From Candidatus Moraniibacteriota bacterium (GTDB lineage Bacteria > Patescibacteriota > Minisyncoccia > Moranbacterales > UBA9337), in NCBI GenBank assembly GCA_026985555.1, contig JALSQF010000011.1, positions 4,571-68,570 on the forward strand: a stretch of DNA of 64,000 bases. Reading direction: 5' to 3'. The notes beneath the pieces were generated by a model that was not told the DNA's origin, did no database searches, and saw nothing but the letters and a program-made list of their open reading frames with translations. This document shows positions 19,203 through 45,484 of this stretch, in pieces. Numbering within the stretch: the stretch's first letter is position 1; every line of letters begins with the position of its first letter. The position numbers and the translations under genes are program-made.

Positions 19203-19230
19203 TTCTTCGGCTATTTAAATAGCCAGAAGG
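19203..19230. repeat. palindromic intergenic element, copy 1 (short, imperfect)
   Basis: TTCTTCGGCTATTTAAATAGCCAGAAGG; shares GGCTATTTAAATAGCCAGAA core with copies at 30975, 40061, 45433. Confidence 0.7.
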
Positions 19231-19233
19231 TTT

Positions 19234-19271
19234 TAGATTAATTTTTTCTTTTAAAAATTAATCTAATTTTA
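19234..19271 (+). terminator. hairpin downstream of murD (possible terminator)
   Basis: 13-nt inverted repeat TTAGATTAATTTT...AAAATTAATCTAA followed by T-rich tract. Confidence 0.4.
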
Positions 19272-19325
19272 ATATAATTAACAAGAATTATTAAATAGAT
19301 TTTGTTATATATGCTTCTACAATAT

Positions 19326-19353
19326 TTGACAAATATTAGATAATTGATACAAT
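19326..19353 (+). promoter_or_regulatory. candidate promoter for the GT2 synthase operon
   Basis: TTGACA (19326-19331), 16-nt spacer, TACAAT; about 170 nt upstream of 19527. Confidence 0.3.
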
Positions 19354-19526
19354 TTTACATTGATTTTTTAAATATTATTAAAATTAAAATATATGTTTGA
19401 ATTAATAAGTGATTATATTTATATTTTTTTTGGAGCAATGATTTTTATTATCAATGTATCATATTTATCAAGTCGTTTGATTATTTTTTCTTTAAAAAAA
19501 ATAAAAAATAATCAAAAGTTTTAAAT

Positions 19527-22500
19527 ATGCAAAAGAAATTTTTTTTATTATTTTTATTTTATATTTTAACAATAATCATAATATATTTATCATTCCGCCC
19601 TTTTTACTTTAAGGAAAGCAATAATTTTATTTTGGCAAAAGTTATACTCTTTGTTGTGTTATTTGTTTTATTAAGACAAACTATATATATTTCTTTAGCT
19701 TTTTTCTTTGATGTTTATCATTATATTCGTGGTTTAAAATTTTCTAATAAAAAGTATTATCCTTTAGTTTCTGTAATTATTCCTGCTTGGAATGAAGAAA
19801 AAGGAATTATTGGAACAATTGAAAGTGTTTTGAAAAGTACTTATAATAATTTAGAAATTATTATAGTAAACGATGGTTCAACGGATAAAACCCATGAAAT
19901 TGTTTTGAATTTTCTAGATATTTTTAATAAAACGAATGTTACTTCAAAGAAAATATTATATATAAAACAAAAAAATAGCGGTAAAGGGGCAGCCTTAAAT
20001 AGTGGAATTAAAAAATCTTCAGGAGAAATCATTATGACTCTTGATGCCGATTCTTTAATAGATAAACAAGCTATAGAAAAAGCTGTAGAAATATTTAAAG
20101 ATCCTAAAATAAGTGCTGCGGCCGGTTATATTCAAATAGGAAACACCAATACTTTTTTTGGATTAATTCAATATTTTGAATATCTGATAAGTTTTATGTT
20201 TAAAAAGGCAGATGATATATTGAATAGTTTATATGTAGTCGGTGGCGCTAATGCTTTTTTTAGAAGAGAGGTTTTTAAAAAGGTAGGGCTGTTTAAGACA
20301 AACACTTTAACAGAAGATATAGAAATGTCAGTTCGCATTCAAAAAAAAGGAATGAAAATAACTTATTTACCTGATGTTTTAGTTACAACTGAGGGAGCGC
20401 AAACTTTTTCTTCATTAGTAAAACAGAGAATAAGATGGAGGAGGGGGAGATATCAAGTTATTTTTCATCTCCATAAGGATTTATTTTTTAACAGAAAAAT
20501 AAAACAAAATAAATTTTTATCATGGATATCTCTGCCTTATTCGGTTTTTATGGAAATCACTCTTTTTTTTGAGCCGTTTTTTTTGGCTTTTCTTTTATTT
20601 TTTAGCTTTATGAGTGGAAATTTTTTATCTTTTTTATTATTAATTATTGTTTCTTCTTGTTTTTTTATTTTTGCTATTTTTACTTCCATAAAAACAGATA
20701 AAAAGAATATTTTGGTTTTTTTATATTTTCCTGTTGCCTGGATGATGTATTATAGCATGTCTTTAATAGAATACATTGCTTTAGTAAAATCTCTTTATGG
20801 GTCTTTTTTAGGCAAGGAGGAGAAATGGCAAAAATGGAAAAGAAGCGGTCTTGTTAAACAGGATATTTTTTCACAGAAAGAAAAAAGTAATTATTATACT
20901 AAAAAAACAAAAATAAAAACTCAAAAATATGTTTTTTATGTGCTTCCTATAAGAACTAAATATTTTCAAAAAGCTCTTTTTAAATTATTAGACGATCTTA
21001 ATTCTTCTTTTTTTGTAAGAGAAGTGTTTGTTACTCATAAAGAAAAGAAATATTTAAATATTAACTATTGTTGTTATGAAATTTTTGTTTCCACTAAAAC
21101 AGAACACGGATATTTTTTGTTTAAAAATTTTTTAAAGAATAATTATCTTTTTGAAAGATTAATTTGGATCTCTTCCTTTTTTAAACACCAGCAAAATTAT
21201 AATTTTTTAAAAACCAAAAAACAAAAAGCAATAAATTCGTGCAATTTATGTAAAAATGAATCTTTAAACAAAAAGAAATCTTTAAATAAAAATTTTTTGT
21301 TTAAAGATTTTATACAAAATAAAATTTTGTCTTCTTTTATTTTTTTATTTCTTATAACTCTAGTTTTTTTGTTCTATTTTAACATATATGTTTCTAATAC
21401 AAAAAATATTCATACTCTCCTGACAATTATTTTATTCGTTATGACTACCGATGGTTTAATGCTTTTCTTGAATATTTTTAGAAGAAAAAAGAAGAATTTT
21501 ATTAACAAAAACTTAAAATCAAATTTAAAGTTAGTAACTTGTGTTATTGCTTGTTATAACGGAGAAAAAGTTATTAAAAAAACTTTAGAACAAGCTAAAA
21601 CTAAGTTTTCTCCTGAACAAATAATTGTTGTTTCTGATAAATCAACAGATAAAACGGCGGAAATTGCTAAAAAAATGGGGGTAAGAGTGATAGAAAATAA
21701 AATAAACCTAAATAAAGCTTTTAGTATTAGTAAAGCTGTTAACCATGTAAAAACTCCTTTAGTATTAATTATGGATGATGATGTTTATATAAAGGATTTA
21801 TTTATTCCCACTGATTTAATAACAGAAAAAAAATATAGAGCAGTAGCTTTTAATGTGATGCCTAATAAAACTGGTAGTTTAATAAATAAACTTCAGATAT
21901 TTGAATATAGAAAAAGTATGTTTTTCAGTAAGGCTTTAAGAAGTAAAGTGGGAGCCGTTTCTAATGTTTCTGGAGCAATCGGACTTTTCTTAAAAGAAGA
22001 TATTGATATACAAAAATCATTTCATTCTGGTCAGTTTGGTGGAGAGGACCAACAAAGAACCATGCTTGTTCATTTACTTAATAAATATAAAGAAAAAAAG
22101 AATAATGGATTAGTTACTTTTTATCCTTCTACTGTTCACACGGATGTTCCTAATTCTTGGAAAAGTCTTTTCAAGCAAAGATCTTTTAGCTGGGGAATGG
22201 CTACTCATGAAAATCTTTTTTTATTTTTTAAAAGTATTTTTTTACCCAAAGCTCATTTTGTTTTAAAAGTTGACAGGGCCTATTTAATTTTTATTTTTTT
22301 AACTGAACCATTGCGCATGTTTTTAACTCCTTATCTCTTTCTTCATACTTCGGTTTTATTTTTTCTATTTTTGTTGTATTTTATATTAGAGAACATTTCT
22401 TGGATAAGGACAGGAAGAAAAGATTCTTATTATATTGTTGTTTTATCTCCTTTTTATAATTTCTTTAAACTAATTACTAGATTTATTGCTTATTTTTATT

Positions 22501-24105: not shown

Positions 24106-24117
24106 TAAGGTAAAATT

Positions 24118-24333: not shown

Positions 24334-24349
24334 TTTTTATTTAGATATT

Positions 24350-24463: not shown

Positions 24464-24481
24464 TTCTAATTTATTTTTATT

Positions 24482-25066
24482 ATGACACAAGAAAAAAAGA
24501 ATACAACAAAAAAAACTAGCGCTAATAATATCTCTGCTTCTCAAGCAGAAGAAAAAGATGAAAAGAAAGAAAATACTTCTACTGATGAAATGAAAAAACA
24601 AGAAAAAATTGATGATGATAAAGCAAAAAATGATATGGAAGCAAAGCAAGAAAAAGAGGTTGATAATAGTACGGTTGCTAATAAAGGTAAAAGTAAAAAA
24701 AGAGGAAAAAGAAAAAGACAAGTTTTAAAAGGAGAAGCCCATATTCAATGTACTTATAATAATACAATTATAACGCTCACTGATATAAATGGAAATGTTT
24801 TGGCTTGGTCTAGCGCAGGTATGTTAGGATTTAAAGGCGCTAAAAAATCTACTCCTTATGCAGCTACACAAGTGGCTAATGATGTAACTGAAAAAGTAAA
24901 AAAATATGGATTACAAGAAGTAAATGTCTATATTAAAGGTGTTGGAGGAGGAAGGGAGGCATCTATTCGTGGTTTAGCTAATTGCAGTTTAAATATCCTT
25001 TCTATTAAAGATATTACTCCTCATCCGCATAATGGGTGTCGCCCAAGGAAACCCAGAAGAGTTTAA
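24482..25066 (+). CDS. rpsK: 30S ribosomal protein S11 with ~65-aa K/E-rich N-terminal extension
   Basis: C-terminal 125 aa match S11 (NNTIITLTD...[17 protein letters not shown]); N-terminus is low-complexity lysine/glutamate-rich. Confidence 0.9.
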
Positions 25067-25120
25067 ATTAAATTATTGTTTATTTTAAATTTAAAATTAA
25101 GAATTAAATAAAAGAAAATA

Positions 25121-25510
25121 ATGGCAAGAATTGCTGGGGTAAATATTCCCGACAACAAAAGAATAGAAATCTCTCTAACTTATATTTATGGTATAGGTCG
25201 TTCTACTAGTAATAAAATTTTAGATAAATTAGCTATTAACAAAGATAAGCGCGCTAAAGACTTAACTAATCAAGAAATCAATCAGCTAAGAGATGAAATT
25301 GAAAAAAAATATAGAGTGGAAGGCGAATTAAAGCATATTATTAAAATGAATATTAAACGTTTAAAGGAAATAGGTAGTTATAGAGGAAGTCGTCATCAAA
25401 AAGGATTACCCGCAAGAGGACAAAGAACTAAAACTAATACAAGGACAGTGAGAGGAAATGTGAGGCGAACAATGGGAAGTGGAAGACGTCCTGCAGCTGA
25501 AAAAACTTAA
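25121..25510 (+). CDS. rpsM: 30S ribosomal protein S13
   Basis: [10 protein letters not shown]...[15 protein letters not shown] conserved S13. Confidence 0.95.
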
Positions 25511-25614
25511 AATTTATAATTTTTTATAATTTATAATATTATTAAAACAAGTAACAAGTAAGTTAAGTATAAAGTAAATAAAATAATAAAAAGATTTAAT
25601 TGTATTTTATATCT

Positions 25615-26247
25615 ATGGCTAGAGATTTAGATTCAAAATGTAAACGTTGCAGAAGAGCAGGGGAAAAACTCTTTTTAAAAGGAGAGCGTTGTTTTAGCCC
25701 TAAATGTGCGATGGTAAGAAAAAATTATCCACCAGGAGTGCATGGAAAAAAGGTTGCACGTAATTTGAGTGAATATGGTCGTCAATTAGCTGTTAAACAA
25801 AAAGTGAAAAGAATTTATGGTGTTTTAGAAAAACAATTCAAGAAACATTTTGACGAAGTAATGACACGAGAGGGAGTTACAGGAGATTTATTAATGCAAC
25901 GCTTAGAAATGAGATTAGATAATGTGATTTACAGAGCAGGTTGGGCTGATTCTCGTAGTCAAGCAAGGCAATTAGTTAGCCATAATTTTTTTACTGTAAA
26001 CAATAAAAAAATGAATATTCCTTCTTATGAAGTTAAAGAAGGTGATATGATTAAAGTTAAGAAAAACAAAGAACAGAAAAAATTTATTAAAAGTCGTCAA
26101 GAATTCATACAGAATAAAAAAGATTTACCGGCTTGGATGGTTTATGATGAAAGTAAAAATGAAGTAAAAATATTAAAAAAGCCTAACATTGATGATATTG
26201 GCATCAAAGTTGACGCTCAATTAATAGTAGAATTCTATTCAAGATAA
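25615..26247 (+). CDS. rpsD: 30S ribosomal protein S4
   Basis: MARDLDSKCKRCRRAGEKLFLKGERCFSPKC zinc-ribbon start then S4 domain; ATG 25615 preferred over TTG 25600 of the track. Confidence 0.9.
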   Translation: MARDLDSKCKRCRRAGEKLFLKGERCFSPKCAMVRKNYPPGVHGKKVARNLSEYGRQLAVKQKVKRIYGVLEKQFKKHFDEVMTREGVTGDLLMQRLEMRLDNVIYRAGWADSRSQARQLVSHNFFTVNNKKMNIPSYEVKEGDMIKVKKNKEQKKFIKSRQEFIQNKKDLPAWMVYDESKNEVKILKKPNIDDIGIKVDAQLIVEFYSR

Positions 26248-26320
26248 TTAATTTAGATAATTGGACACAGATTTTTACAAGTGATTAAAATTAATCTGGG
26301 TACAACTTATCTCAACTATT

Positions 26321-27310
26321 ATGGAGGTATCACTTCCCAAAAAAATTAAAACTATTTCCACAGGAGAAAACACCGGAGAATTTATTATAGAAGGATGTTA
26401 TCCTGGTTATGGAACTACCTTAGGAAATAGCTTAAGAAGAGTATTGTTATCTTCTTTAGAGGGTGTAGCCATTACTGCTGTAAAAATTAAAGGAGTGCAA
26501 CATGAATTTTCTACATTAAAAGGAGTAATGGAAGATGTAGTTCAAATAATTCTTAATCTTAAAAAAGTAAGATTATCTGTTGAAAATTCTGATGAAACCT
26601 GGGAAGCTAGCCTTAAATTTAAAGGAGAAGGAGTAGTAACAGCTAAAGATTTTAAATTACCAAGCGGAATTAAAGTAGTTAATCCGGAACAAGTTATTGC
26701 CACCTTAACAGATAAAAAAGCAGAATTAGAAATGGATGTAAAAATTACAAGAGGGTTAGGATATATGCCAGTAGAACAACAAGAAAAGAAGGAAAAAGAA
26801 ATTGGTGTTATAGAGATTGATGCGATTTATACTCCCATTAAAAGAGTAAATTATCAAGTAAGCAATATGCGTGTAGGAAAAAGAACGGATTATGATAAAA
26901 TAAAGCTAGAAATTGTTACTGATGGTAGTATTAATCCGGAGGATGCTTTTAATAAAGCAGTAGATATTTTAGTTCAGCAATTTTCTGCTTTAAAAGAAAT
27001 AAATGTAGCTGATGATTTAGTGGAAGAAGATATGGAGCAGACTCTTTTAGAAGAAAAAGAGCATCAAAATAAAAAAGAAAAAGATAATCAACAACAGGAA
27101 AAAGATGCTCTAGAAACATTAGTGGTTGATTTGAAAAATATTTCTAAAAGAACACTTAATATATTAGAAATAGCTAAAATTAAAAAAGTAAAAGACTTAG
27201 TTGCTATGACAGAAAATGATTTAAAACAAATAGAAGGCATAGGTGATAAAGGAGTAAAAGAAATTCGTAAAGCTATTGGTATATTTGGTTTTACTTTAAA
27301 GCAAGAATAA
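26321..27310 (+). CDS. rpoA: DNA-directed RNA polymerase alpha subunit
   Basis: 329 aa; NTD (GYGTTLGNSLRRVLLSS) and alpha-CTD helix-hairpin-helix region. Confidence 0.95.
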   Translation: MEVSLPKKIKTISTGENTGEFIIEGCYPGYGTTLGNSLRRVLLSSLEGVAITAVKIKGVQHEFSTLKGVMEDVVQIILNLKKVRLSVENSDETWEASLKFKGEGVVTAKDFKLPSGIKVVNPEQVIATLTDKKAELEMDVKITRGLGYMPVEQQEKKEKEIGVIEIDAIYTPIKRVNYQVSNMRVGKRTDYDKIKLEIVTDGSINPEDAFNKAVDILVQQFSALKEINVADDLVEEDMEQTLLEEKEHQNKKEKDNQQQEKDALETLVVDLKNISKRTLNILEIAKIKKVKDLVAMTENDLKQIEGIGDKGVKEIRKAIGIFGFTLKQE

Positions 27311-27362
27311 AATAATTAGTTTATATTAATGTTTTGAAATTCTAATAAGTAAGAAAAGTTTT

Positions 27363-27731
27363 ATGCAACATTTAAGAAAAGGAAGAAAACTAGGTCGTGT
27401 TCGCCGACAAAGAGTTGCTCTAAAGAGAACTTTGTTGACTAGTTTAATAATGGAAGAAAAAATTATAACTACAGAAGCTAAAGCTAAAGAAATAAAACCA
27501 CTTTTTGATAAGTTAGTAACAAAAGTAAAGCAATATCAAGAATTTCCAGATAAAAGAGTGATAATTATAAGAAATTTAAGAAACAAAGTAGCCACTAAAG
27601 CTGTGAAAAAACTTATGGATGATAAGTTTAATCAGAGATTTAAAAAACGTTCTAGTGGATATACTAGAATAGTAAAATTAGTTCCTCGGAGAAGCGATTC
27701 TGCTAAAATGGCTATGTTAGAAATTTTATAA
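27363..27731 (+). CDS. rplQ: 50S ribosomal protein L17
   Basis: MQHLRKGRKLGR...conserved L17. Confidence 0.95.
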   Translation: MQHLRKGRKLGRVRRQRVALKRTLLTSLIMEEKIITTEAKAKEIKPLFDKLVTKVKQYQEFPDKRVIIIRNLRNKVATKAVKKLMDDKFNQRFKKRSSGYTRIVKLVPRRSDSAKMAMLEIL

Positions 27732-27742
27732 TTTAAAAATCT

Positions 27743-28132
27743 ATGAAAAGAAAATTTTATCAATTTGATGTTCAAGGGAAAATTTTAGGAAGAGTAGCTG
27801 TGGAAATTGCTCAAGTTTTGAGTGGTCGCCAAAAAGTTGATTTTACTCCCAACGAAGATAAAGGAGATTGGGTTGTAGTAATTAATTCTGATAAAGTAAG
27901 GGTAACAGGTAATAAAGAGAAAGGTAAGAAATATTACCATTATAGCGGTTATCCTGGAGGATTAAAAGAAGTTACTTTCCGTGATCAATTAAAAAATGAT
28001 TCTAGGAAGATTATTGAAAAAGCAGTGAAAGGAATGTTGCCAAAAAATAAATTGCAGGCGAAGTTTTTAAAAAGATTATTGATTTATAAAAATGAACAGC
28101 ATCCTCATAAGATTGATAAAAAAATAAGTTAA
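27743..28132 (+). CDS. rplM: 50S ribosomal protein L13
   Basis: 129 aa; L13 family (ILGRVAVEIAQVLSGRQK...GMLPKNKL). Confidence 0.93.
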   Translation: MKRKFYQFDVQGKILGRVAVEIAQVLSGRQKVDFTPNEDKGDWVVVINSDKVRVTGNKEKGKKYYHYSGYPGGLKEVTFRDQLKNDSRKIIEKAVKGMLPKNKLQAKFLKRLLIYKNEQHPHKIDKKIS

Positions 28133-28142
28133 CTAAAATTTT

Positions 28143-28604
28143 ATGAAAGAGAAAAAAATAACTAAGAAAGAAAAAGAGAAAAAAAAAGTTAAGTCAACTG
28201 AAAATAAGAAGAAAGAATACTTTTATGGACTAGGAAGAAGAAAAACAGCAGTTGCGCAAGTAAGAATTTATTTTTCAGAAAAAAAATCAGAATTTTTAGT
28301 AAATAAAAGAGAAATGAAAGAATATTTTACTCTTTTATCATATCAAAATATTTTTCAAGATCCTCTACGAGTAACAGGATTATTAGAAAAAGTTAAAGTA
28401 GATGCGAAAGTAAAAGGGGGTGGTCTTAGAGGTCAAGTTGAAGCTATTCGTTTAGGTATAGCTAGGGCTTTAGTGAAGTATGATGATAATTTCAAAAAGG
28501 TATTAAGAGCAGAGGGCTTTCTTACCAGAGATGCGCGTAAAGTGGAAAGAAAAAAAGCTGGTCTCAAAAAAGCTCGTCGTGCTCCTCAGTGGGCTAAAAG
28601 ATAA
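28143..28604 (+). CDS. rpsI: 30S ribosomal protein S9 with K-rich N-terminal extension
   Basis: YFYGLGRRKTAVAQVRI...GGGLRGQVEAIRLGIARAL...KKAGLKKARRAPQWAKR typical S9; about 25 extra N-terminal residues. Confidence 0.9.
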   Translation: MKEKKITKKEKEKKKVKSTENKKKEYFYGLGRRKTAVAQVRIYFSEKKSEFLVNKREMKEYFTLLSYQNIFQDPLRVTGLLEKVKVDAKVKGGGLRGQVEAIRLGIARALVKYDDNFKKVLRAEGFLTRDARKVERKKAGLKKARRAPQWAKR

Positions 28605-28640
28605 TCTTGTTTTTCAAAAATAAAATTTTAATTTTAAAAT

Positions 28641-29915
28641 ATGTGGGAAAAAATTGCTTTAGTTTTTAAAGTAAAAGAACTAAGAAAAAAAATATTTTTT
28701 GTATTATTTCTTTTAGTAATTTTTCGTTTAGCGGCTAACATTCCATTGCCAGGAGTAAATCTAGAACAATTAAAAAGATTATTTGAAGGAAATCAATTTT
28801 TGGGATTGTTAAATATGTTTTCAGGCGGAGGATTAAAAAGTATTTCCATTGTGCTTTTAGGTGTTGGACCTTATATTACTGCTTCTATCATTATGCAAAT
28901 TTTAACTATGGTAATTCCAGCTTTAGATAAATTAAACAGGGAAGAGGGAGAAGCAGGACGAGAAAAATTTAATATGTGGACACGTTGGCTAACTGTTCCT
29001 TTAGCTATTATTCAAACCTTTGGAATGATTACCTTATTAAAAACTCAACATGTTTTAGGTCTTTTATCTTTAATGCAAACTACGGAAATTATAATTATTG
29101 CAACAGCGGGAACAGTTTTTTTAACTTGGTTAGGAGAACTAATTACCGAAAAAGAGATAGGTAACGGAGTTTCTTTAATAATTTTCGCGGGTATTGTAGC
29201 TGGATTGCCTAGTGGAATTTCTCGTTTAATGAGCACTTTTGATTCCACAGAAGTTTTTAGTTATATTCTTTTTTTAATGATTGCTATTGCTACAGTAATA
29301 GGTGTAGTAATTGTTAATGAAGGACAAAGAGATATTCCAGTTTCTTATGCTAAAAGAGTACATGGCTCACAAATGAGCGGGGGAACTAGCACCCATCTAC
29401 CCTTAAGAGTTAATCAAGCTGGTGTTATTCCAATTATTTTTGCTATTTCCATTATGCTTTTTCCGGGAGTAATTGCTAATTTTTTGTCTCATGCGCATAA
29501 TCCCACTGTAGCTCATTTAGCGCAATCCATAGGTAATCTGTTTCAAAATAAGTTATTTTATGGCACGATGTACTTTTTATTAGTGGTAGCCTTTACTTAT
29601 TTTTATACAGCTGTAGTTTTTGATCCACAGAAAATAGCTGAAAATTTACAGAAACAGGGAGGATATATTCCTGGAATTAGACCAGGAGAACCAACAGAAG
29701 AATATCTTAATAAGATTATGAATCGTATCACGCTTTCTGGATCTATTTTTTTAGGCGCCATAGCTGTGTTGCCCTTAATAGTCCAATCTATTACTAATAT
29801 TGGCAATGTAATGACGGTAGGAGGAACAAGTATTTTAATAGTTGTAGCTGTTGTAATTGAAATTATCAAACAGATAGAAAGTCATATGGTTATGCGTAAT
29901 TATGAGGGCTTTTAG
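28641..29915 (+). CDS. secY: preprotein translocase subunit SecY
   Basis: 424 aa, 10 TM; conserved SecY blocks (GVGPYITASIIMQIL, GREKFN, QRDIPVSYAKR). Confidence 0.95.
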   Translation: MWEKIALVFKVKELRKKIFFVLFLLVIFRLAANIPLPGVNLEQLKRLFEGNQFLGLLNMFSGGGLKSISIVLLGVGPYITASIIMQILTMVIPALDKLNREEGEAGREKFNMWTRWLTVPLAIIQTFGMITLLKTQHVLGLLSLMQTTEIIIIATAGTVFLTWLGELITEKEIGNGVSLIIFAGIVAGLPSGISRLMSTFDSTEVFSYILFLMIAIATVIGVVIVNEGQRDIPVSYAKRVHGSQMSGGTSTHLPLRVNQAGVIPIIFAISIMLFPGVIANFLSHAHNPTVAHLAQSIGNLFQNKLFYGTMYFLLVVAFTYFYTAVVFDPQKIAENLQKQGGYIPGIRPGEPTEEYLNKIMNRITLSGSIFLGAIAVLPLIVQSITNIGNVMTVGGTSILIVVAVVIEIIKQIESHMVMRNYEGF

Positions 29916-30603: not shown

Positions 30604-30683
30604 TAAGATAACAATAAGACAGAAGGTTTTACAAGGATTCTTTAGTTTTTTAAAAAACTAAAAAACAAAAGAAAGGAGGAAAA

Positions 30684-30881
30684 ATGAGAAGTTGGCATAA
30701 GAATTATGCTGACAAGCATTATCAAATTCAAAAAAGAAAAAAAAGGAGGTTAAGATGGATCTTGTTTCAGTTTCAAAAAAACTTATTTGTTTCAAATTCA
30801 AAAAACAAAAAGTGGTTTATGAAAGGAGGTGATCCATCATCTAAGGTAGCATATCTTTTTATTGCTACCGCCAAGGGCTAA
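30684..30881 (+). CDS. small highly basic hypothetical protein, uncertain
   Basis: 65 aa, K/R-rich; AAAGGAGG 8 nt upstream of ATG; two further internal SD-like motifs including GAAAGGAGGTGATCC; terminator hairpin downstream. Confidence 0.3.
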   Translation: MRSWHKNYADKHYQIQKRKKRRLRWILFQFQKNLFVSNSKNKKWFMKGGDPSSKVAYLFIATAKG

Positions 30882-30919
30882 TCCCCCTTGTGTAATTTTC
30901 TTTTTAAATAAAATAAGAT

Positions 30920-30955
30920 AAGAAGAGAAGGCAATCCTTCTCTTCTTTTAATATT
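30920..30955 (+). terminator. Rho-independent (bidirectional) terminator hairpin
   Basis: 12-bp stem AAGAAGAGAAGG-CAAT-CCTTCTCTTCTT flanked by A-run upstream and T-rich run downstream. Confidence 0.6.
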
Positions 30956-30974
30956 TTCTTTAATGATAAATTTT

Positions 30975-31016
30975 TTCTTCTGGCTATTTAAATGGATATT
31001 TAAATAGCCAGAAGAA
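30975..31016. repeat. palindromic intergenic element, copy 2 (19-bp arms, GGAT spacer)
   Basis: TTCTTCTGGCTATTTAAAT-GGAT-ATTTAAATAGCCAGAAGAA perfect inverted repeat. Confidence 0.8.
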
Positions 31017-31183
31017 AAATAGGTTTTGAAAAATAAAAAATATTTTTGAAAAATTAAGTTTTAAGTTAAAAGTTTAATAAGGATATCTGCAATCTGCAAA
31101 GTGATTATTTTATACACAATATTATGTTTATTTTTCTAAGAAAATAGTGTAAAATGAAATTGTTTTTCTAAAAATATTAAATT

Positions 31184-37766: not shown

Positions 37767-38054
37767 ATGGGAATTAGTAAAAAAATAGAAGAAATTCGTC
37801 AGAAGCCAGAACACATTAGATTGAGATATGTTTATGGAGCAGTGGCTATATCAATGATAATAATTATAATTATCTGGATTTTTTCTTTAAAATTAGAATT
37901 AGGAGAAATAAACGATGTTTCTGTTGAAAATAAAGACAATGTTACAAGGGTAAATGAAATAAATAGTTTAGTGCGTCCTCCTTTTCAAGATTATCAAAAA
38001 AATACTCAGAATAAGAATGATAAAAATTTTGAAAATTATCAAAGAGGGGAATAA
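37767..38054 (+). CDS. small single-pass membrane protein
   Basis: 95 aa, one TM (AVAISMIIIIIIWIFSL), polar C-terminus. Confidence 0.4.
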   Translation: MGISKKIEEIRQKPEHIRLRYVYGAVAISMIIIIIIWIFSLKLELGEINDVSVENKDNVTRVNEINSLVRPPFQDYQKNTQNKNDKNFENYQRGE

Positions 38055-38181
38055 AAATAAAAAGTTGACAAGTATTACGTTTTTTTTATAATTATATTAG
38101 TCGTAAAATTTTATATATAACATGTAAATGTAAATTGAATATAATACTTTAAGTAAGTAATTAAAAATAAAAACAAAAAAT

Positions 38182-38559
38182 ATGGAATTTTTAAAGGGCA
38201 GCATTACAGCTAATAAAAAAAATTTTTTTATAGCTGTTTTAATTATTGTCATAGCTATAATAGCTTTTTCTATTTTTTTGGTTGTTTTTAAAAAAGGAGC
38301 GAGTGAATATTTACAAACAAAAGAAATTATTCAGAGAAAACAAATGAAAAATGTTAATAAAATCTCAAATGAAAAAACGGAAAATAATTCAAAAACTACA
38401 GAAAATAATACTAGTGATAATGGTATAGATGAAGAAACACAAAAACTATTGAATGAAAAAACGGAAAATAATTCAAAAACTACAGAAAATAATACTAGTG
38501 ATAATGGTATAGATGAAGAAACACAAAAACTATTGAATGAAAAATTTAAAAATGAATAA
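38182..38559 (+). CDS. single-pass membrane protein with duplicated 28-aa module
   Basis: 125 aa; TM (FFIAVLIIVIAIIAFSIFLVVF) then NEKTENNSKTTENNTSDNGIDEETQKLL twice. Confidence 0.5.
   Translation: MEFLKGSITANKKNFFIAVLIIVIAIIAFSIFLVVFKKGASEYLQTKEIIQRKQMKNVNKISNEKTENNSKTTENNTSDNGIDEETQKLLNEKTENNSKTTENNTSDNGIDEETQKLLNEKFKNE
38371..38538. repeat. perfect 2 x 84-bp tandem direct repeat inside the coding sequence
   Basis: aatgaaaaaacggaaaataattcaaaaactacagaaaataatactagtgataatggtatagatgaagaaacacaaaaactattg repeated exactly (38371-38454 and 38455-38538). Confidence 0.9.
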
Positions 38560-38610
38560 TATTTATTCTTTATTATTTAGTTTTATAAATTAATTTAAAT
38601 AAAAAAAAGT

Positions 38611-39639
38611 ATGAAAAAAATTAAAAGAAAAATCAAATATTGGGGAGGAGTGATAATTATAGGGATAATGCTTGGAATTTCAATCCAGTTTGTAGTAGCT
38701 TGGACAGAACCTTCTTTAGATCCTCCTACGAGTAATCTATTGGCACCCATTAATATAAGTAACAATAGTCAATATAAAGAAGGTAGTCTTTATTTAAATT
38801 CGTCAGGAGCTTATGTTAATGGATTAATAGTAAGGAATAATGCTATAATTAGAAATTTAAATGGAGGAACAACTAGTTTGTATGTGGGATATAATCATGC
38901 GACTGGTAATAATTCTAATGACGGAAGAATAATTCTTTTTGGAGAACATAATAATCATATTTATACAGCAACAATAACTCAAGGAAGCTCTAATTTGTTT
39001 ATTAGCACGCCAGGTCATGTGATGTCTAGTTCTCCTTTGGATATTGTATCAGGAAATCAGCTCTTAGTTAGAAGTAGCAGTAATAATAATATAGGGTATA
39101 TACGTCATAATGGTAGCAATTTTCAATTATATACTAATCATGGAAACATTCAAATAGGTGATAACAATGATAATGTTGGAATAGGAACATCTTCTCCTAG
39201 TAAGAAATTGGATGTAGCTGGAGCAGTAAAAGGTGATCAGTTATGTATTGGTAGTGATTGTCGCAGTAGTTGGCCTACTCCAGGTGGTTCGGGAAAATTA
39301 ATACGAAATATTAGATATTCCAATAGAATTACAGTTGTAAGAAACACATATAACGTTGATGCTGGTTATGTTTATTGCCATTCTGATGAAATATTAGTAA
39401 ATTGTGCTTATTATTCAGGAAATTTAAATAGAATTGTAACGTATAGTGATATAAATGTTAATTCTGCTTATTATTATGATAAGTATCCTAATAGTAACTG
39501 GGAAAGAGATAATGTACTTCAAGTTAGAATGACACCTGATCATAATGGTTGTTATATTCATTATTGTGATGATGATCCTTATCATAAGTTTAATAATTAT
39601 TATCTTTGGACAGTGGCTATTTGTCTGAGAGTGCAGTAA
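38611..39639 (+). CDS. N-terminally anchored, Cys-rich surface protein with tail-fibre-like motif
   Basis: 342 aa; N-terminal TM (GGVIIIGIMLGISIQFVVAW); G/N/S-rich beta-like region; VGIGTSSPSKKLDVAG motif; 8 Cys in last 130 aa. Confidence 0.5.
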   Translation: MKKIKRKIKYWGGVIIIGIMLGISIQFVVAWTEPSLDPPTSNLLAPINISNNSQYKEGSLYLNSSGAYVNGLIVRNNAIIRNLNGGTTSLYVGYNHATGNNSNDGRIILFGEHNNHIYTATITQGSSNLFISTPGHVMSSSPLDIVSGNQLLVRSSSNNNIGYIRHNGSNFQLYTNHGNIQIGDNNDNVGIGTSSPSKKLDVAGAVKGDQLCIGSDCRSSWPTPGGSGKLIRNIRYSNRITVVRNTYNVDAGYVYCHSDEILVNCAYYSGNLNRIVTYSDINVNSAYYYDKYPNSNWERDNVLQVRMTPDHNGCYIHYCDDDPYHKFNNYYLWTVAICLRVQ

Positions 39640-39696
39640 AAATTAGTAGAAAATCAAATTTCATAAATAAGTAATTAAATTAAAAAATAAAAAAAT

Positions 39697-39912
39697 ATGA
39701 ATATAAATAAAGCTGTTATAAGTCTGATTTTATCTCTAGTAAACTTATTATTAATAATGGTATTGTTTTTTATTTTGTATAATAATGGAAATTTAGAAAA
39801 CGCAATTAAGCATAGTAAACCTAAACCGCCAGCAGTTTTAGAATCAAGTAAAAATAACGAAGTAATTCCACCTATGCCAGTAGATTCTAATTTGGATTCA
39901 AACAAAAAATAA
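39697..39912 (+). CDS. small single-pass membrane protein
   Basis: 71 aa; one TM then Pro/Lys-rich tail. Confidence 0.4.
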   Translation: MNINKAVISLILSLVNLLLIMVLFFILYNNGNLENAIKHSKPKPPAVLESSKNNEVIPPMPVDSNLDSNKK

Positions 39913-40060
39913 CAATAAGAAAAATTTATATTTGTTTTAATTTTTAATTTTTAATAATTCAATAAAAAATGATAAAACACATTATAATTTTTTTATTAGG
40001 ATTTACCAAAATTAATAATTTAAATGAAAATTAAAAATAAGTTAAATAATAAGCAAGTTT

Positions 40061-40096
40061 TTCTGGCTATTTAAATATCCATTTAAATAGCCAGAA
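40061..40096. repeat. palindromic intergenic element, copy 3 (ATCC spacer, opposite orientation to copy 2)
   Basis: TTCTGGCTATTTAAAT-ATCC-ATTTAAATAGCCAGAA. Confidence 0.8.
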
Positions 40097-40499: not shown

Positions 40500-42950
40500 A
40501 TGAAAAGTGATATAAACAATACAAAAGAAAATATTCAAATTCGTCCTATAACTAAAGAAGTGCAACAATCTTATTTAGATTATGCTATGAGTGTTATTGT
40601 GGCACGTGCTTTGCCAGATGTGAGAGATGGCCTTAAACCGGTGCATCGCAGAATTTTATATTCTATGTGGAAAACGGGATTAAAATCTAATGCAAAATTT
40701 CGTAAGTCGGCTACAGTGGTGGGGGAAGTATTAGGAAAATATCATCCTCATGGAGATATGGCAGTTTATGATTCTATGGTGCGTTTAGCTCAAGATTTTT
40801 CTTTACGTTACCCTTTAATTTGGGGACAAGGAAATTTTGGATCTATGGATGGAGATAGCGCAGCGGCATATCGTTACACAGAGGCCAAATTGCAAAAAAT
40901 AGCGGAAGAAATGTTGTTAGATATTGAAAAAGATACAGTTGATTTTGTTCCTAATTTTGACGGAACTCACCAAGAACCTTCTGTTTTACCTGCTAAACTT
41001 CCCCAGTTATTATTAAATGGAACTATGGGAATTGCCGTAGGTATGGCTACTAATATACCACCTCATAATTTAAATGAATTGGTAGATGCTATAGTATATC
41101 TTATTGATCATTCGGAGGCGACAGTGGAGGAAATAATGCAATTTATTAAAGGTCCTGATTTTCCTACGGGAGGAATTATTTATAATCAAAAGGATATTTT
41201 AGAGGCTTATGCCACAGGCAAAGGAAGAATTGTTACACGAGCAAAAGCTGAAATTATAGAAAATAAAAAAGGAAAGTTTCAAATTATTGTAACGGAAATG
41301 ACTTATGCTACTAACAAAGCCTCTCTTTTAGAAAAGATTGCTTTTTTAGTTAAAGAGGGAAAAATAAAAGGAATTAGAAATTTAAGAGATGAATCTGACA
41401 AAGAGGGAATACGGATCGTGATTGACCTAAAAAAGGACGCATTTCCTCAAAAAGTGTTAAATAGACTTTATTCTTTAACAGATTTGCAGAAAAATTTTAA
41501 TGTTAATATGTTAGCCTTGGTAGATGGAATTGAACCGCAAATTTTAAATTTAAAATCCGTTTTAGATTATTACATAAAACATAGAAAGGTAGTTGTAACA
41601 CGAAGAACAAAATATGAACTACAAAAAGCGAAAGATAGAGCGCATATTTTAGAGGGATTAAAAAAAGCCTTAGACCATATTGATGAAGTGATTAGTGTAA
41701 TCAAAAAATCTAAAACAAAAGAGATTGCTCATCAGAATTTAGTTAAAAAATTTAAATTTTCTGATAAACAGACAGAAGCAATTTTAGAAATGAAGTTGCA
41801 AACTTTAGCAGGATTAGAAAGAAAAAAAATAGAGGAAGAATTAAAAGAAAAATTAAAATTAATTGCAGAATTAGAAAGTATTTTAAAAAATCCTCAAAAG
41901 CTTTTAAATATTATTAAAAAAGAGTTAAAAGAGCTAAAAGAAAAATATGGCGACAAAAGAAAAACAAAGGTAATTAAGAGTAAGGTAGGAGAATTTAAAC
42001 AAGAAGATTTAGTTCCCAATGAAGAAGCCATTATTACTATATCTTACAAAGGATATATAAAAAGAATGAATCCTGGAGTTTATAAGCTACAGAAAAGGGG
42101 AGGGAAAGGTGTCATCGGCGCTACTACCAAAGAAGATGATTTTATTCAACAGATGGATGCAGTGATGACGCATGATAATTTATTATTTTTCACAGATTCA
42201 GGGAAAGTATTTCGTACTCAAGCTTATGAAATTCCGGAGTCAACTAGAACAGCTAAGGGACAGGCTTTAGTTAATTTTTTACAACTAGGAACAGAGGAGA
42301 AAGTGACAGAAATGATTGCTTTTAATCAAAACGACAATTATCGTTATTTTCTTATGATTACAGAAAAGGGAATTATTAAAAAGGTAAAACTAGCTGAATT
42401 TGATAATGTTAGGAGAAGTGGTTTAATTGCAATTAAATTAAATAAAAATGATAAATTAAGATGGGTAAAACCAACCACAGGTTCTGATGAAGTTGTTATA
42501 ACTACTGCTTTAGGACAAGCTATTCATTTTAAAGAAAAAGATATTCGCAGTATGGGTAGATCTGCTGCTGGAGTAAGAGGAATTCGTCTTAAAAAAGATG
42601 ATAAAGTTGTAGGTATGGATGTAATTTTAGCTAAACAGAAAGGAAATCAACTAATGATTATAACAGAAAATGGATATGGAAAAAGGACTGATTTAAAATT
42701 TTATAAAATTCAAAAAAGAGGAGGGTCGGGAATTAAAACAGCTAAAATTACCAGTAAAACGGGAAAAATTATAGGAGCTAATCTAGTTAATTTAGATGAT
42801 TTAGAAAGAGATTTGATTATTACTTCAGCTAAAGGTCAAATTATTAGAATTCCTTTAGAGAGTATTCCTACATTAAGTAGAGCTACACAAGGAGTAAGAG
42901 TAATGAAACCGAAAACAGGAGATAAAGTAAGCGCTATGACAATATTATAA
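40500..42950 (+). CDS. gyrA: DNA gyrase subunit A
   Basis: 816 aa; catalytic Tyr region ([11 protein letters not shown]), QRDR-like ([20 protein letters not shown]), C-terminal beta-pinwheel repeats. Confidence 0.95.
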
Positions 42951-43087
42951 TTCTAGTAAAAAGAAAATAAGTCTTGTCAATAAAAAAATAAAATGTTATC
43001 TTTAAAAATATTAATTTTTAATTAGCTAATATTGGTCTTATTAAATTTAAAGTAAATAAAGACGAGTATTCAGCTGTAAATAAAAAT

Positions 43088-43357
43088 ATGGCATTAACTA
43101 AAAAGCAAAAAGAAATAGTTACTCAAAATGTAAAAAGGCACAACAAAGATACAGGATCTCCAGAATATCAAATTGCTCTTTTTACAGAAAAAATTAAAAA
43201 ACTAACCGATCATTTAAAGAAAAATAAAAAAGATTTTCATTCTCGCAGAGGGCTTTTAAAAATGGTGGCTAAAAGGAAAAAGTTAATGAATTATTTAGAA
43301 AAAACTAATAAGAAAGCTTATAAAGCTTTAATTAAAAAACTAAAATTAAAAGGTTAA
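43088..43357 (+). CDS. rpsO: 30S ribosomal protein S15
   Basis: 89 aa; ...TGSPEYQIALFTEKIKKLTDHLKKNKKDFHSRRGLLKMV typical S15. Confidence 0.93.
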   Translation: MALTKKQKEIVTQNVKRHNKDTGSPEYQIALFTEKIKKLTDHLKKNKKDFHSRRGLLKMVAKRKKLMNYLEKTNKKAYKALIKKLKLKG

Positions 43358-43404
43358 AATTTTTTAATAATTCTTTTTGAATTATTTTTAATAAATAAAA
43401 ATCA

Positions 43405-43911
43405 ATGTCTAATTTTTCTCAATTCAAGGAGCAAAGAGTAGCCGTTTTAGTGGATATTCAAAATCTTTATTATAGCGCTAGAGTTTTATATAATAAAAAA
43501 GTAAATTTTAAAAATATCTTATTGGAAGGAGTAGCTAGGAGAAAATTAATTAGAGCCATAGCTTATGGAATAACTACCTTAGAAGGTTCGGAGGAAAAAT
43601 TTTTAGAAGCGTTAGTTAAACACGGATTTGAGGTAAAAACTAAAGATTTGCAAATATTTCCTGGAGGAGCCAAAAAAGGAGATTGGGATGTGGGTATTGC
43701 AGTAGATGCCATTAAATTATCTAAAAATTTAGATGTGATTGTTTTAATTTCGGGAGATGGTGATTATTTACCGATGGTTACTTATGTGCAAAATACTACT
43801 GGTTGTCGGGTTGAAGTGATGGCTTTTAGCGAATCGGCTAACGGAAAGTTAATAGAGCAGGCAGATAATTTTATTAATCTTTCAGAAAATAGAAAAAAAT
43901 TTTTAATTTAA
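43405..43911 (+). CDS. NYN/LabA-like (PIN-fold) protein
   Basis: 168 aa; RVAVLVDIQNLYYSAR...DWDVGIAVDAI...VIVLISGDGDYLPMV acidic residues of LabA/NYN. Confidence 0.8.
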   Translation: MSNFSQFKEQRVAVLVDIQNLYYSARVLYNKKVNFKNILLEGVARRKLIRAIAYGITTLEGSEEKFLEALVKHGFEVKTKDLQIFPGGAKKGDWDVGIAVDAIKLSKNLDVIVLISGDGDYLPMVTYVQNTTGCRVEVMAFSESANGKLIEQADNFINLSENRKKFLI

Positions 43912-43995
43912 ATATTTAAAAATTGAAAACAAATTATATTTTATTTAAAAATATAAAAAACCGACTATATTTAGATAGTCGGTTTTGTTTTTTAA

Positions 43996-44235
43996 TTAAG
44001 GGCAAGGAGACAATTTTTTTTTCCATTTACCTCCGTTAAAACATCCTTCCCATTCATTTGTTCTAATGATTAAAACAAATGAATAAGGGCGAAGATTAGA
44101 ATTTTCCTCCCTTATTTCTTCATAATTTTCATCATATTTGCTTTCCTCCCAATTTTTGTGGCAAAAACAAATTTTTTTTGGGTTGTAAATACTTAAAAAA
44201 GCGCCACAAATTTCACATCTCCTTTTCTTTTGCAT
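43996..44235 (-). CDS. small Cys-rich (zinc-ribbon-like) hypothetical protein
   Basis: 79 aa; CEICG...CFCH...C...C; lies at the distal end of the minus-strand tRNA cluster. Confidence 0.35.
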   Translation of the reverse strand: MQKKRRCEICGAFLSIYNPKKICFCHKNWEESKYDENYEEIREENSNLRPYSFVLIIRTNEWEGCFNGGKWKKKLSPCP

Positions 44236-44313
44236 AATAGAATAGCCCTCCTTTTTGTAATAAATTAAAAATTAAAAAATGAAAAAGAACTAAAAACAAA
44301 TCTAACTTTCCAG

Positions 44314-44386
44314 TGCATCCAGAGGGATTCGAACCCCCGACCGTCTGGTTAAGAGCCAGCTGCTCTACCAACTGAGCTATGGATGC
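44314..44386 (-). tRNA. tRNA-Lys (anticodon CUU)
   Basis: Cloverleaf GCATCCA-TA-GCTC..GAGC-A-GCTGG-CTCTTAA-CCAGA-CGGTC-GGGGG-TTCGAAT-CCCTC-TGGATGC-A; CCA not encoded. Confidence 0.85.
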
Positions 44387-44402
44387 TTTATAAAATATAT
44401 TG

Positions 44403-44473
44403 TTCCGAGGTAGGGACTCGAACCCCAATTAGCAGAGCCAGAATCTGCTGTCCTACCATTAGACGACCTCGGA
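44403..44473 (-). tRNA. tRNA-Gln (anticodon CUG)
   Basis: TCCGAGG-TC-GTCT..GGAC-A-GCAGA-TTCTGGC-TCTGC-TAAT-TGGGG-TTCGAGT-CCCTA-CCTCGGA-A; 4-nt variable loop; CCA not encoded. Confidence 0.75.
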
Positions 44474-44488
44474 GCAAATTTTTAAAAG

Positions 44489-44571
44489 TGCCGCGGGAGA
44501 GACTCGAACTCTCATGGGACAAGCCCACTAGTTCCTAAGACTAGCGTGTCTACCAATTCCACCACCGCGGC
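44489..44571 (-). tRNA. tRNA-Leu (anticodon UAG), class II with long variable arm
   Basis: GCCGCGG-TG-GTGGAATTGGTAGACAC-G-CTAGT-CTTAGGA-ACTAG-[TGGGCTTGTCCCA]-TGAGAG-TTCGAGT-CTCTC-CCGCGGC-A. Confidence 0.85.
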
Positions 44572-44587
44572 AGTTAACTAGTATAAG

Positions 44588-44661
44588 TAGCAGGGGTGAG
44601 AATTGAACTCACGACCTTGGGCTTATGAGTCCCACGCTCTAACCAACTGAGCTACCCTGCC
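44588..44661 (-). tRNA. tRNA-Met (anticodon CAU; could be elongator Met or lysidine-modified Ile2)
   Basis: GGCAGGG-TA-GCTC-AGTTGGTTA-GAGC-G-TGGGA-CTCATAA-GCCCA-AGGTC-GTGAG-TTCAATT-CTCAC-CCCTGCT-A; G1.U72 wobble; A31.G39 mismatch; CCA not encoded. Confidence 0.75.
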
Positions 44662-44734
44662 TTTCTAAAAATTTTTTTAAAAAATCTAAAAATATTCCAA
44701 CACTTTTGCATTATCCTATATTTTTTAAGAAAAA

Positions 44735-45040
44735 TCAAGAGTTAGATTTGAAGAAAAGTTTAATTCTTTCAATTTCTTTTTTTAAAATATCTTCATTTTT
44801 GTATTCACCATGATGACGAGTAGTTTTTCCGTAAGTATACTTTTTTTGATCTAAATGAATATTGAAGATAAGATTATTTTCAAGAAGAGTTAAGTAAATA
44901 TGAAAACGAGGAAAACCACTTTGGCTTAACGGATAAATAAAACTCATTTGATTATTACTAGTATGATGTTGAAATTGATAACCTAATTGTCTTAATAGAT
45001 TAGTGGGATTTTTTTGAAAATCTTTCAAAATTATTTTCAT
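44735..45040 (-). CDS. hypothetical protein embedded in the tRNA cluster
   Basis: 101-aa ORF between tRNA-Ala and tRNA-Met on the same strand; no motif recognised. Confidence 0.4.
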   Translation of the reverse strand: MKIILKDFQKNPTNLLRQLGYQFQHHTSNNQMSFIYPLSQSGFPRFHIYLTLLENNLIFNIHLDQKKYTYGKTTRHHGEYKNEDILKKEIERIKLFFKSNS

Positions 45041-45087
45041 TTTAGATAGAAATATTATTAATTTATAGAATAGTAACTAATAAAAAG

Positions 45088-45160
45088 TGGACTATGCCGG
45101 ACTTGAACCGGCCACCTCATCCATGCCATGGATGCGCTCTGCCAGATGAGCTAATAGCCC
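45088..45160 (-). tRNA. tRNA-Ala (anticodon GGC)
   Basis: GGGCTAT-TA-GCTC-ATCTGGC-AGAGC-G-CATCC-ATGGCAT-GGATG-AGGTG-GCCGG-TTCAAGT-CCGGC-ATAGTCC-A; G3.U70 identity pair; CCA not encoded. Confidence 0.85.
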
Positions 45161-45270
45161 TTATATATGATTTATATTACTATATCATAGCAAACTTTAC
45201 TCTAGATTTCAAGAAAAATATAGTATATATTAAAAAAGTTACTTTTAGTTTGCAAAAAAGCTAATAGAAA

Positions 45271-45359
45271 GGAGAAGTGCCAGAGTGGTTGAATGGGGCG
45301 CTCTCGAAAAGCGTTGTTCCTATAAGGAACCGGGGGTTCAAATCCCTCCTTCTCCGCCA
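45271..45359 (+). tRNA. tRNA-Ser (anticodon CGA), class II; CCA encoded
   Basis: GGAGAAG-TG-CCAGAGTGGTTGAATGG-GGCGCT-CTCGAAA-AGCGT-[TGTTCCTATAAGGAACC]-GGGGG-TTCAAAT-CCCTC-CTTCTCC-G-CCA. Confidence 0.85.
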
Positions 45360-45432
45360 ATTGAAATTTTATATTGTGAAAATATAAAAATTGTATTTCA
45401 TAATTATTTATTTTTTAAAAAACAAATTTATT

Positions 45433-45484
45433 CTTTCTGGCTATTTAAATATCCATTTAAATGGATATTTAAATAGCCAGAAAG
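45433..45484. repeat. palindromic intergenic element, copy 4 (extended 52-bp perfect palindrome)
   Basis: CTTTCTGGCTATTTAAAT-ATCC-ATTTAAAT-GGAT-ATTTAAATAGCCAGAAAG equals its own reverse complement. Confidence 0.85.

Follow-up and report, generated by a model that had tools for sequence, protein, structure and literature searches.

Within 64,000 nucleotides of a Candidatus Moraniibacteriota genome (GCA_026985555.1, contig JALSQF010000011.1, positions 4,571 to 68,570; hereafter the window, with positions counted from its first nucleotide), a long palindrome recurs in nearly identical form at four loci. This recurrence raises the question of what kind of element the palindrome represents, and of how its copies came to occupy unrelated sites. 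An earlier note on the window had suggested a mobile palindrome resembling repetitive extragenic palindromic (REP) sequences or miniature inverted-repeat transposable elements (MITEs), a family of bidirectional terminators, or binding sites for a dimeric regulator or nucleoid protein. With moderate confidence, we favor a form of the first suggestion, in which the palindromes constitute a young, lineage-specific, copy-derived REP-like hairpin or cruciform repeat. The number of internal sequence boxes would change by slippage in such a repeat, and some copies would probably have been co-opted as attenuators that combine a sense-strand hairpin with a U-tract.

Architecture and common descent of the palindromes

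Palindromes of this family have the general build TTCTGGCT-ATTTAAAT-(4 nt-ATTTAAAT)0-2-AGCCAGAA, and contain one to three ATTTAAAT boxes in a total length of 28-54 bp. The consensus over the copies is YTTCTGGCT-ATTTAAAT-(4 nt-ATTTAAAT)0-2-AGCCAGAAR, in which the 4-nt spacers are either ATCC or GGAT. A palindrome scan, from which arms and loops were taken as maximal perfect inverted repeats, and searches for the core and for half-sites recovered all four of the elements described earlier, and each of them is indeed intergenic (Table 1). The single one-box copy carries a one-base bulge in its left arm, which reads TTCTTC-GGCT as compared with AGCCAGAAGG. Conservation among the four loci is far beyond chance, as had been claimed: with up to two mismatches allowed, the 16-mer GGCTATTTAAATAGCC occurs five times in the window versus 0.04 expected occurrences, and the half-site ATTTAAATAGCCAGAA has seven exact occurrences. 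The palindrome is the sole high-identity dispersed repeat in the 64-kb window. Its multi-box copies are predicted to form very stable folds, with RNA values of −22 to −38 kcal/mol (z of −7 to −12) and DNA z values of −8 to −12.

A half-site scan of JGI metagenomes revealed seven additional true copies, five of the three-box and two of the two-box type, on four contigs of the Joint Genome Institute (JGI) metagenome Ga0256833. These contigs share nothing with the window except the element. The family therefore totals 11 near-identical copies at unrelated loci, with a density of approximately one copy per 15 kb over the ∼165 kb of genome sequence seen. Given the shared element and shared source lists, the window and the Ga0256833 contigs probably derive from one organism.

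The distribution of the element is otherwise very narrow. Scanning 185,579 species-representative genomes with the pattern CTGGCTATTTAAAT-N(0-30)-AGCCAG yielded no true copies; the 19 matches obtained are attributed to chance because they are single, come from unrelated taxa, and have sequence between the arms that does not belong to the family. Viral contigs gave no match to the specific 24-mer and, among the matches listed for the 14-mer half-site, only single chance ones. The palindrome was likewise not found in the phages and plasmids searched, no palindrome match was obtained from Rfam even at E≤1, and literature searches with the sequence, the accessions, and terms for REP elements and the candidate phyla radiation (CPR) returned nothing relevant to the palindrome. 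The ∼9 kb beyond the end of the window hold no further copy. The search of related genomes that the earlier note had recommended restricts the element to one lineage within the sequences covered. A look-alike, TTTCTGGCTATTTAAAT-AT-ATTTAAATTTAGCT, is present at 4258-4300 of contig L160, which comes from an unrelated metagenome (ERZ1034897; 28% G+C), and may represent either a degenerated member of the family or a coincidental resemblance.

The core from TTCTGG to CCAGAA is identical at 10 of the 11 loci, amounting to zero substitutions in ∼450 bp of core sequence across these 10 copies. The spacer ATCC/GGAT is common to all 10 multi-box copies, and all six three-box copies carry ATCC followed by GGAT, although pairing would be just as good with the two exchanged. 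If a one-box site had expanded in situ, its spacer would be AGCC and not ATCC. On these sequence grounds, we conclude that the copies share common descent from a single progenitor sequence instead of having arisen as convergent sites. Deletions of 12 bp between ATTTAAAT boxes suffice to turn the three-box form into the one-box type or into either two-box type, and two-box copies are present in both orientations relative to transcription. Outside the conserved stem, both flanks are purine-rich when read outward (AGAARRA), which amounts to a fuzzy inverted extension only. A longer conserved body of the kind expected for a MITE was sought by BLAST and by pairwise scoring of 60-nt flanks, and only AT-rich low-complexity similarity near background was detected.

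Strain differences and the proposed spread of copies

A strain with ∼99% nucleotide identity to the window, represented by GCA_054024795.1 and a Logan contig, differs from it in box number at one locus. At 45432, this strain has a two-box (GGAT) copy, a difference of 12 bp that is seen in short-read assemblies. The copy at 19203-19230 is shared unchanged by the 99% strain and three further assemblies, and the copy at 30972 differs in GCA_054024795.1 by one T>C substitution in the outer arm.

More distant relatives provide a view of the locus without the element. On metagenome contig L149, secD and secF are separated by 318 bp, which hold a 57-aa open reading frame (ORF) and a palindrome located 10 bp after its stop codon. 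In contrast, the secD-secF junction measures 19 bp in a relative with 80% SecF identity and 17 bp in a relative with 66% identity, and neither junction contains a palindrome. Comparison of these junctions indicates that the occupied state on L149 is the derived one. The intergenic DNA of the 80% relative is not alignable at this site. A second copy on L149 marks a point where gene order departs from that of the 80% relative, of which 21 kb contain no family copy and no ATTTAAAT at all.

These data are consistent with the following scheme. The progenitor was most likely a three-box, perfect palindrome of ∼52 bp with the arrangement TTCTGGCT ATTTAAAT ATCC ATTTAAAT GGAT ATTTAAAT AGCCAGAA. Copies of this progenitor would have been put into many unrelated intergenic sites in a transposition-like manner, for which the obvious candidate enzyme would be a hairpin-recognizing HUH/Y1 transposase of the RAYT (REP-associated tyrosine transposase) or IS200/IS605 type. 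Once placed, the element might fold as a 22-27-bp hairpin in RNA or single-stranded DNA, or supercoiled DNA might extrude it as a cruciform. If strands slip or templates switch between its 8-bp ATTTAAAT boxes, its length could then change in steps of 12 bp, yielding two-box copies of either loop orientation as well as one-box remnants such as that at 19203. A copy that is located inside a transcription unit and has a T-run downstream would probably function as a one-directional attenuator or as a hairpin that protects the 3′ end.

The suggestion of a REP- or MITE-like mobile palindrome is thus supported insofar as the element is dispersed, restricted to one lineage, and absent from the orthologous secD-secF junction. 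Its mobility is only inferred, because searches for a target-site duplication and for a transposase both gave negative results, and several observations weigh against a mobile repeat. Inspection of the flanks of all 11 copies for target-site duplications, as the earlier note had advised, revealed inverted, purine-rich sequence and never direct repeats. Pfam searches of ∼70 proteins, taken from the window and from most ORFs of the metagenome loci, detected no transposase, RAYT or integrase. The 99% strain carries the element at all four window loci, and no precise empty site at alignable nucleotide identity was found. In addition, complementarity extends by a further 6-9 bp in three two-box copies (30972 in the window and those on L152 and L154), with a different sequence in each. 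Simple cut-and-paste movement of a fixed element is insufficient to explain these copy-specific pairs, which suggest either that stem length has been under selection or that the element inserted into palindromes already present. The invariant core also fits purifying selection on a functional site.

The perfect arms measure 22-27 bp in nine of the 11 copies, whatever the number of boxes. One conceivable alternative is that the palindromes are not selfish DNA but cis-sites of an as yet undescribed Patescibacteria-specific system, in which a host protein recognizes a cruciform, or a 12-bp-periodic array of ATTTAAAT boxes with fixed arm length, between transcription units. We consider this alternative improbable. 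If it were true, the sites might serve in chromosome organization, in the insulation of promoters from supercoiling, or in marking where accessory genes integrate.

Two large structural differences are the only ones that distinguish the window from the 99% strain over the ∼21 kb aligned within 26995-48960, and a palindrome is located 15-22 bp from one and 68 bp from the other (Table 1). Palindromes might accordingly be recombination or integration hot spots, serving as targets of a site-specific recombinase or as substrates for homologous or cruciform-induced rearrangement, and thereby marking the entry of accessory DNA. In favor of this explanation, both copies on L149 are located at an insertion or rearrangement junction relative to the 80% relative, and the copy at 45432 precedes sfsA and an island with restriction-modification, Fic and T5orf172 genes. 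However, the breakpoints lie beside the palindromes and not inside them, the variable segments are not bounded by a second copy, and no recombinase gene is found nearby. Moreover, structural variants are confined to intergenic DNA anyway, such that the coincidence is only suggestive (rough p∼0.04). We therefore view hot spots as a quite doubtful explanation. A recombinase core site of the lox, dif or hix type was considered and rejected, as the asymmetric center is 4 bp or absent and the strain breakpoints are outside the palindromes.

The two variable sites have some additional features. At 31034-31041, the window has 8 bp between direct repeats TTTTGAAAAAT, 15-22 bp past the palindrome, and the 99% strain carries extra DNA there that extends across two contig ends (L001 4041-4146 and L163 1-167). 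The segment at 38028-39993 comprises 1,966 bp with its own TTGACA...TATAAT-like site and two ORFs without a Pfam match (38182-38559 and 38611-39639), the first of which holds an 84-bp tandem duplication (38359-38526, 95% identical). GCA_054024795.1 has 58 unrelated bp in place of this segment, and the copy at 40061, just downstream, is retained.

Five Logan short-read contigs from three sequencing runs (L141-L144 and L166) start or end inside a palindrome, at window positions 30991, 40069, 40087 and 45456. Such breaks of de Bruijn contigs, together with the difference in box number between assemblies at one locus, could be taken as signs of an assembly or amplification artefact, which the earlier note had named as a possible refutation. 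This explanation is exceedingly improbable, since each palindrome is flanked on its two sides by unique gene sequence in synteny and not by inverted duplications, and since the same elements occur in independent NCBI, ENA and JGI assemblies, at 11 loci. The contig ends instead imply that these repeats systematically fragment de Bruijn assemblies of this organism, and this effect helps explain the fragmentation of such metagenome-assembled genomes.

Table 1. Coordinates of palindrome copies, sites of strain difference, and other features.
Feature	Sequence	Position	Strand	Remarks
One-box copy	Window	19203-19230	.	TTCTTC-GGCT ATTTAAAT AGCC AGAAGG; imperfect
Two-box copy	Window	30972-31019	.	Loop GGAT; 22-bp perfect arms TTTTTCTTCTGGCTATTTAAAT / ATTTAAATAGCCAGAAGAAAAA
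Two-box copy	Window	40061-40096	.	Loop ATCC (orientation opposite to 30972); 16-bp perfect arms
Three-box copy	Window	45432-45485	.	54-bp perfect palindrome identical with its reverse complement; arms of 27 bp without a loop; GGCT ATTTAAAT ATCC ATTTAAAT GGAT ATTTAAAT AGCC plus outer arms
Copy between divergent genes	L152	6655-6708		
Copy between divergent genes	L154	6484-6533		
Copy between divergent genes	L157	9571-9620		
Structural difference from GCA_054024795.1	Window	31034/31041		Homology with the 99% strain stops at 31034 and resumes at 31041
Structural difference from GCA_054024795.1	Window	38028-39993		Absent from GCA_054024795.1
57-aa ORF in secD-secF gap	L149	4137-4310	-	MRRKIEKRNIRKIAKRGGSYSVNLPIEMM...; weak MazE/SpoVT-AbrB match (E=0.004, below Pfam cut-off)
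T5orf172 + ResIII helicase + Eco57I-type methylase fusion	Window	46426-50436		1336 aa
T5orf172/MUG113 protein	Window	51362-52018		
Fic protein	Window	52252-53349		
DUF5677 match	Window	54299-55072		Sub-threshold

Gene context, possible functions and known repeat families

In the window, the one-box copy lies 38 bp past murD and is followed by GTTTTAG, with a promoter-like TTGACA-16-TACAAT site (19326-19353) ∼100 bp beyond it. The copy at 30972 is preceded, at a distance of ∼25 bp, by a hairpin of the canonical terminator kind (30920-30947), and an SMC_N/AAA ATPase gene is present 165 bp further on. The copy at 40061 is found 422 bp past a 342-aa ORF and 404 bp upstream of gyrA, and that at 45432 is flanked by tRNA-Ser, which ends 73 bp before it, and by sfsA, which begins 58 bp after it. 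The description of the copies as lying just downstream of gene ends is consequently loose for 40061. When extended to the whole family, it is borne out only in part: eight of the 11 copies are placed between same-strand genes (hereafter tandem copies), three between divergent genes, and none between convergent genes. From copy to copy, the next start codon is found anywhere between 58 and 460 bp away. Neighboring genes encode GT2, SMC_N ATPase, GyrA, SfsA, SecF, ABC ATPase, SLT, ThrRS/glutaredoxin, PRTase and NDK proteins, among which no regulon theme was found for the genes downstream of the copies. No common small ORF was found beside the copies, one of which, as noted above, sits within the secD-secF operon.

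An intrinsic terminator has a stem that is immediately followed by a U-tract, and it is located at the 3′ end of a transcription unit. Neither property characterizes the palindromes. Directly after the conserved stem, the purine run AGAARRA occurs on both strands without a T-tract, and three copies, being located between divergent genes, do not occupy 3′ ends. Another four, all of them tandem copies, come shortly after a distinct canonical terminator with a GC stem and a T-tract (window 30920-30947, L157 ∼3170-3200, L149 ∼7900, and one in L146). A terminator scan passes only one of the four window copies, that at 30972, whose T-run is ∼10 nt away. These findings give no support to the proposed family of bidirectional terminators.

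Some features of the sense strand are nonetheless suggestive of a role in RNA. T-runs of at least four nucleotides within 14 nt after the stem are present on the sense strand of five of the eight tandem copies, among them those at 19203 and 40061, at 3230 on L157, and on L146. None of the eight has such a run on the antisense strand, and the probability expected per site from background is 0.23. In six of the eight, the RNA of the sense strand also folds more stably, because outer-stem mismatches become U·G pairs in that orientation. As + strand RNA, for example, the stem at 40061-40096 is lengthened by U·G, U-A and U·G pairs and is then followed by AUUUU. The strand bias in U·G pairs was dismissed as a sign of RNA-level selection, being too weak at ∼7 versus 2 when base composition alone predicts ∼60:40.

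As the T-runs are confined to the sense strand, termination or attenuation at some copies may operate in one direction. Termination, or service as a hairpin at mRNA 3′ ends in sense-strand RNA, would be an unlikely primary function for the family. The T-runs, the sense-strand folds and the great stability of the hairpins argue for such a function, but copies between divergent genes, copies already behind a canonical terminator, the purine runs on both strands, and the small U·G bias argue against it. We infer that use of a hairpin plus U-tract is partial and secondary, and that it is not the defining function of the family.

The palindromes could also form an array of sites for a lineage-specific DNA-binding protein, such as a global regulator or a factor that associates with the nucleoid or organizes the chromosome. 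A dimer would then occupy each ATTTAAAT box together with its GGMT/AKCC shoulders, and one to three such sites at 12-bp spacing would be bound cooperatively. The modular build from 8-bp palindromic boxes accords with this possibility, as does the invariance of the core at positions that are irrelevant for pairing (the loop, and the order of ATCC then GGAT). Furthermore, every copy is upstream of at least one gene start, the three divergent-gene copies are flanked by promoter-like hexamers, none is convergent, and no mobility signature was found. However, the neighboring genes are functionally unrelated and their start codons lie at widely differing distances, identity over 36-52 bp far exceeds that within known operator sets, strains of 99% identity do not agree in box number, and one copy is inside the secD-secF operon. 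Operators and sites resembling parS, Noc-binding sites (NBS) or matS would be expected to be bound by a cognate protein and to be conserved at orthologous positions or across relatives, whereas the palindrome is absent from 21 kb of the 80% relative, in which the secD-secF junction is that of a tight operon, and from all 185,579 species representatives. The binding site for a dimeric regulator or nucleoid protein that was proposed earlier is weakened by the heterogeneous neighbors, the variable distances, the variation in box number among strains and the absence from relatives, and we now judge it to be a somewhat unlikely explanation.

The known systems closest to the repeat include REP sequences and the REP doublets forming hairpins (REPINs) that are associated with RAYTs in enterobacteria, Pseudomonas and Stenotrophomonas. 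Both are short extragenic palindromes that are near-identical at unrelated loci and lineage-specific, may sit inside an operon (secD-secF in the present case), form hairpins or cruciforms, and have a possible secondary use at RNA 3′ ends. The three-box form can even be read as a REPIN-like doublet, in which an 8-bp spacer separates the imperfect 16-bp palindrome GGCTATTTAAATATCC from its complement in inverted orientation. Unlike REP sequences, which are imperfect palindromes of ∼20-40 nt, the family lacks a GTAG-type 5′ head, its arms starting with YTTCTGGCT, and is a perfect palindrome in 10 of 11 copies that is composed of 12-bp modules varying in number. Its host is a Patescibacterium, and no RAYT gene was detected among the ORFs scanned. 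The location of three of 11 copies between divergent genes is also atypical when compared with the bacterial interspersed mosaic elements (BIMEs) of E. coli. With no GTAG head, a perfect palindrome and no RAYT seen, membership in the REP-RAYT group is not established.

Minimal MITEs, such as those of the Correia/NEMIS type or solo terminal inverted repeats, share with the family two abutting inverted arms of ∼24-27 bp, an intergenic location and occurrence in either orientation. However, the palindromes have no direct target-site duplication, on which membership among MITEs fails, no parent insertion sequence was found, and their length of 28-54 bp is at or below the usual size range. A similar modularity is seen in pneumococcal BOX elements (boxA-boxB(n)-boxC), which have an internal unit whose number varies between copies and strains and a predicted stable RNA structure, but their modules of 45-59 nt do not constitute a single perfect palindrome, show no sequence similarity to the family, and belong to another phylum.

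Paired DNA-uptake sequences that double as terminators (DUS in Neisseria and USS in Pasteurellaceae) are likewise inverted, conserved intergenic words, and some of the palindromes have a sense T-run. DNA-uptake words measure 9-12 bp, occur approximately once per kb and are also found in genes, whereas the palindromes are units of 28-54 bp at approximately one per 15 kb, with four loci in 64 kb, none of them intragenic, and no unpaired copies inside genes. Integron attC sites are intergenic hairpin sites as well, and the element is twice found 3′ of one or more apparently inserted genes (the small ORF on L149 and window 38028-39993). Nevertheless, attC sites are imperfect hairpins with R''/L''-L'/R' boxes in cassette arrays beside intI, and the palindromes differ from them in having perfect pairing without extrahelical bases and no RYYYAAC/GTTRRRY boxes; no intI was found. 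In addition, successive copies are separated by 4-12 kb of housekeeping genes (for ribosomal proteins, gyrA and murD), and none of the variable segments has a site at each end.

Searches for dispersed palindromic repeats reported in Patescibacteria (CPR) found none. The genomes of these bacteria are very small, and perfect palindromes of ∼50 bp would demonstrate that REP-like repeat dynamics occur there too, including the colonization of new sites, gain and loss of boxes through slippage, and possibly the recruitment of copies as RNA hairpins. The palindromes also provide natural markers for strain typing. Identification of a cognate transposase or binding protein would add a new hairpin- or cruciform-recognizing protein in a phylum with almost no experimentally characterized DNA-binding factors. 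The family would be of greater interest still if a dedicated host system proved to underlie both the constancy of arm length and the association of palindromes with structural variants.

The host and other features of the window

The window has a G+C content of 27% and carries murD, genes for S11/S13/S4-rpoA-L17-L13-S9-secY, gyrA, valS, RNase P RNA and six tRNAs. Its RpoA, SecY and GyrA proteins are singletons at 90% identity among 15 billion proteins. For the SecF encoded beside a metagenomic copy, the nearest named relatives are Candidatus Moranbacteria or Patescibacteria with ∼60-65% identity, and one lineage is closer at 80%. Judging from sequence relationships, the host is a poorly sampled Moranbacteria-like CPR bacterium. 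The class A RNase P RNA at 11316-11655 scores 103 bits versus an Rfam gathering threshold of 100, and a score barely above threshold fits a divergent lineage.

Metagenome contig L154, which bears one palindrome, contains other repeats within positions 1-5060. These comprise a 138-bp direct repeat with 100% identity (1-138 and 1432-1569), a 161-bp repeat with 86% identity (1265-1425 and 3230-3386), and tandem units of ∼90 bp near 3620-3810. The G+C content of this contig, 33.5%, is above that of the other contigs, and its final 127 bp are identical to the end of L152.

The ribosomal protein genes at 24482-29915 occur in the unusual order S11, S13, S4, rpoA, L17, L13 and S9, followed by secY. 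The usual order is S13-S11-S4, with secY upstream. The S11 protein of the window is 194 aa long, with an N-terminal extension of ∼80 aa. Between a 202-aa ORF and the terminator and palindrome near 30972, a leader-like stretch at 30640-30900 has three very strong Shine-Dalgarno sites and no Pfam match. The Shine-Dalgarno site GAAAGGAGGTGATCC is presumably fully complementary to the 3′ end of 16S rRNA. The same stretch holds a very basic 65-aa ORF (30684-30881), a nested 25-aa ORF, and an 11-bp perfect palindrome (30641-30662).

Beyond the tRNA cluster and sfsA, an apparent defense or mobile island extends from 45543 to 56000. It contains the T5orf172, Fic and DUF5677-like genes listed in Table 1, as well as several ORFs that do not belong to a family.

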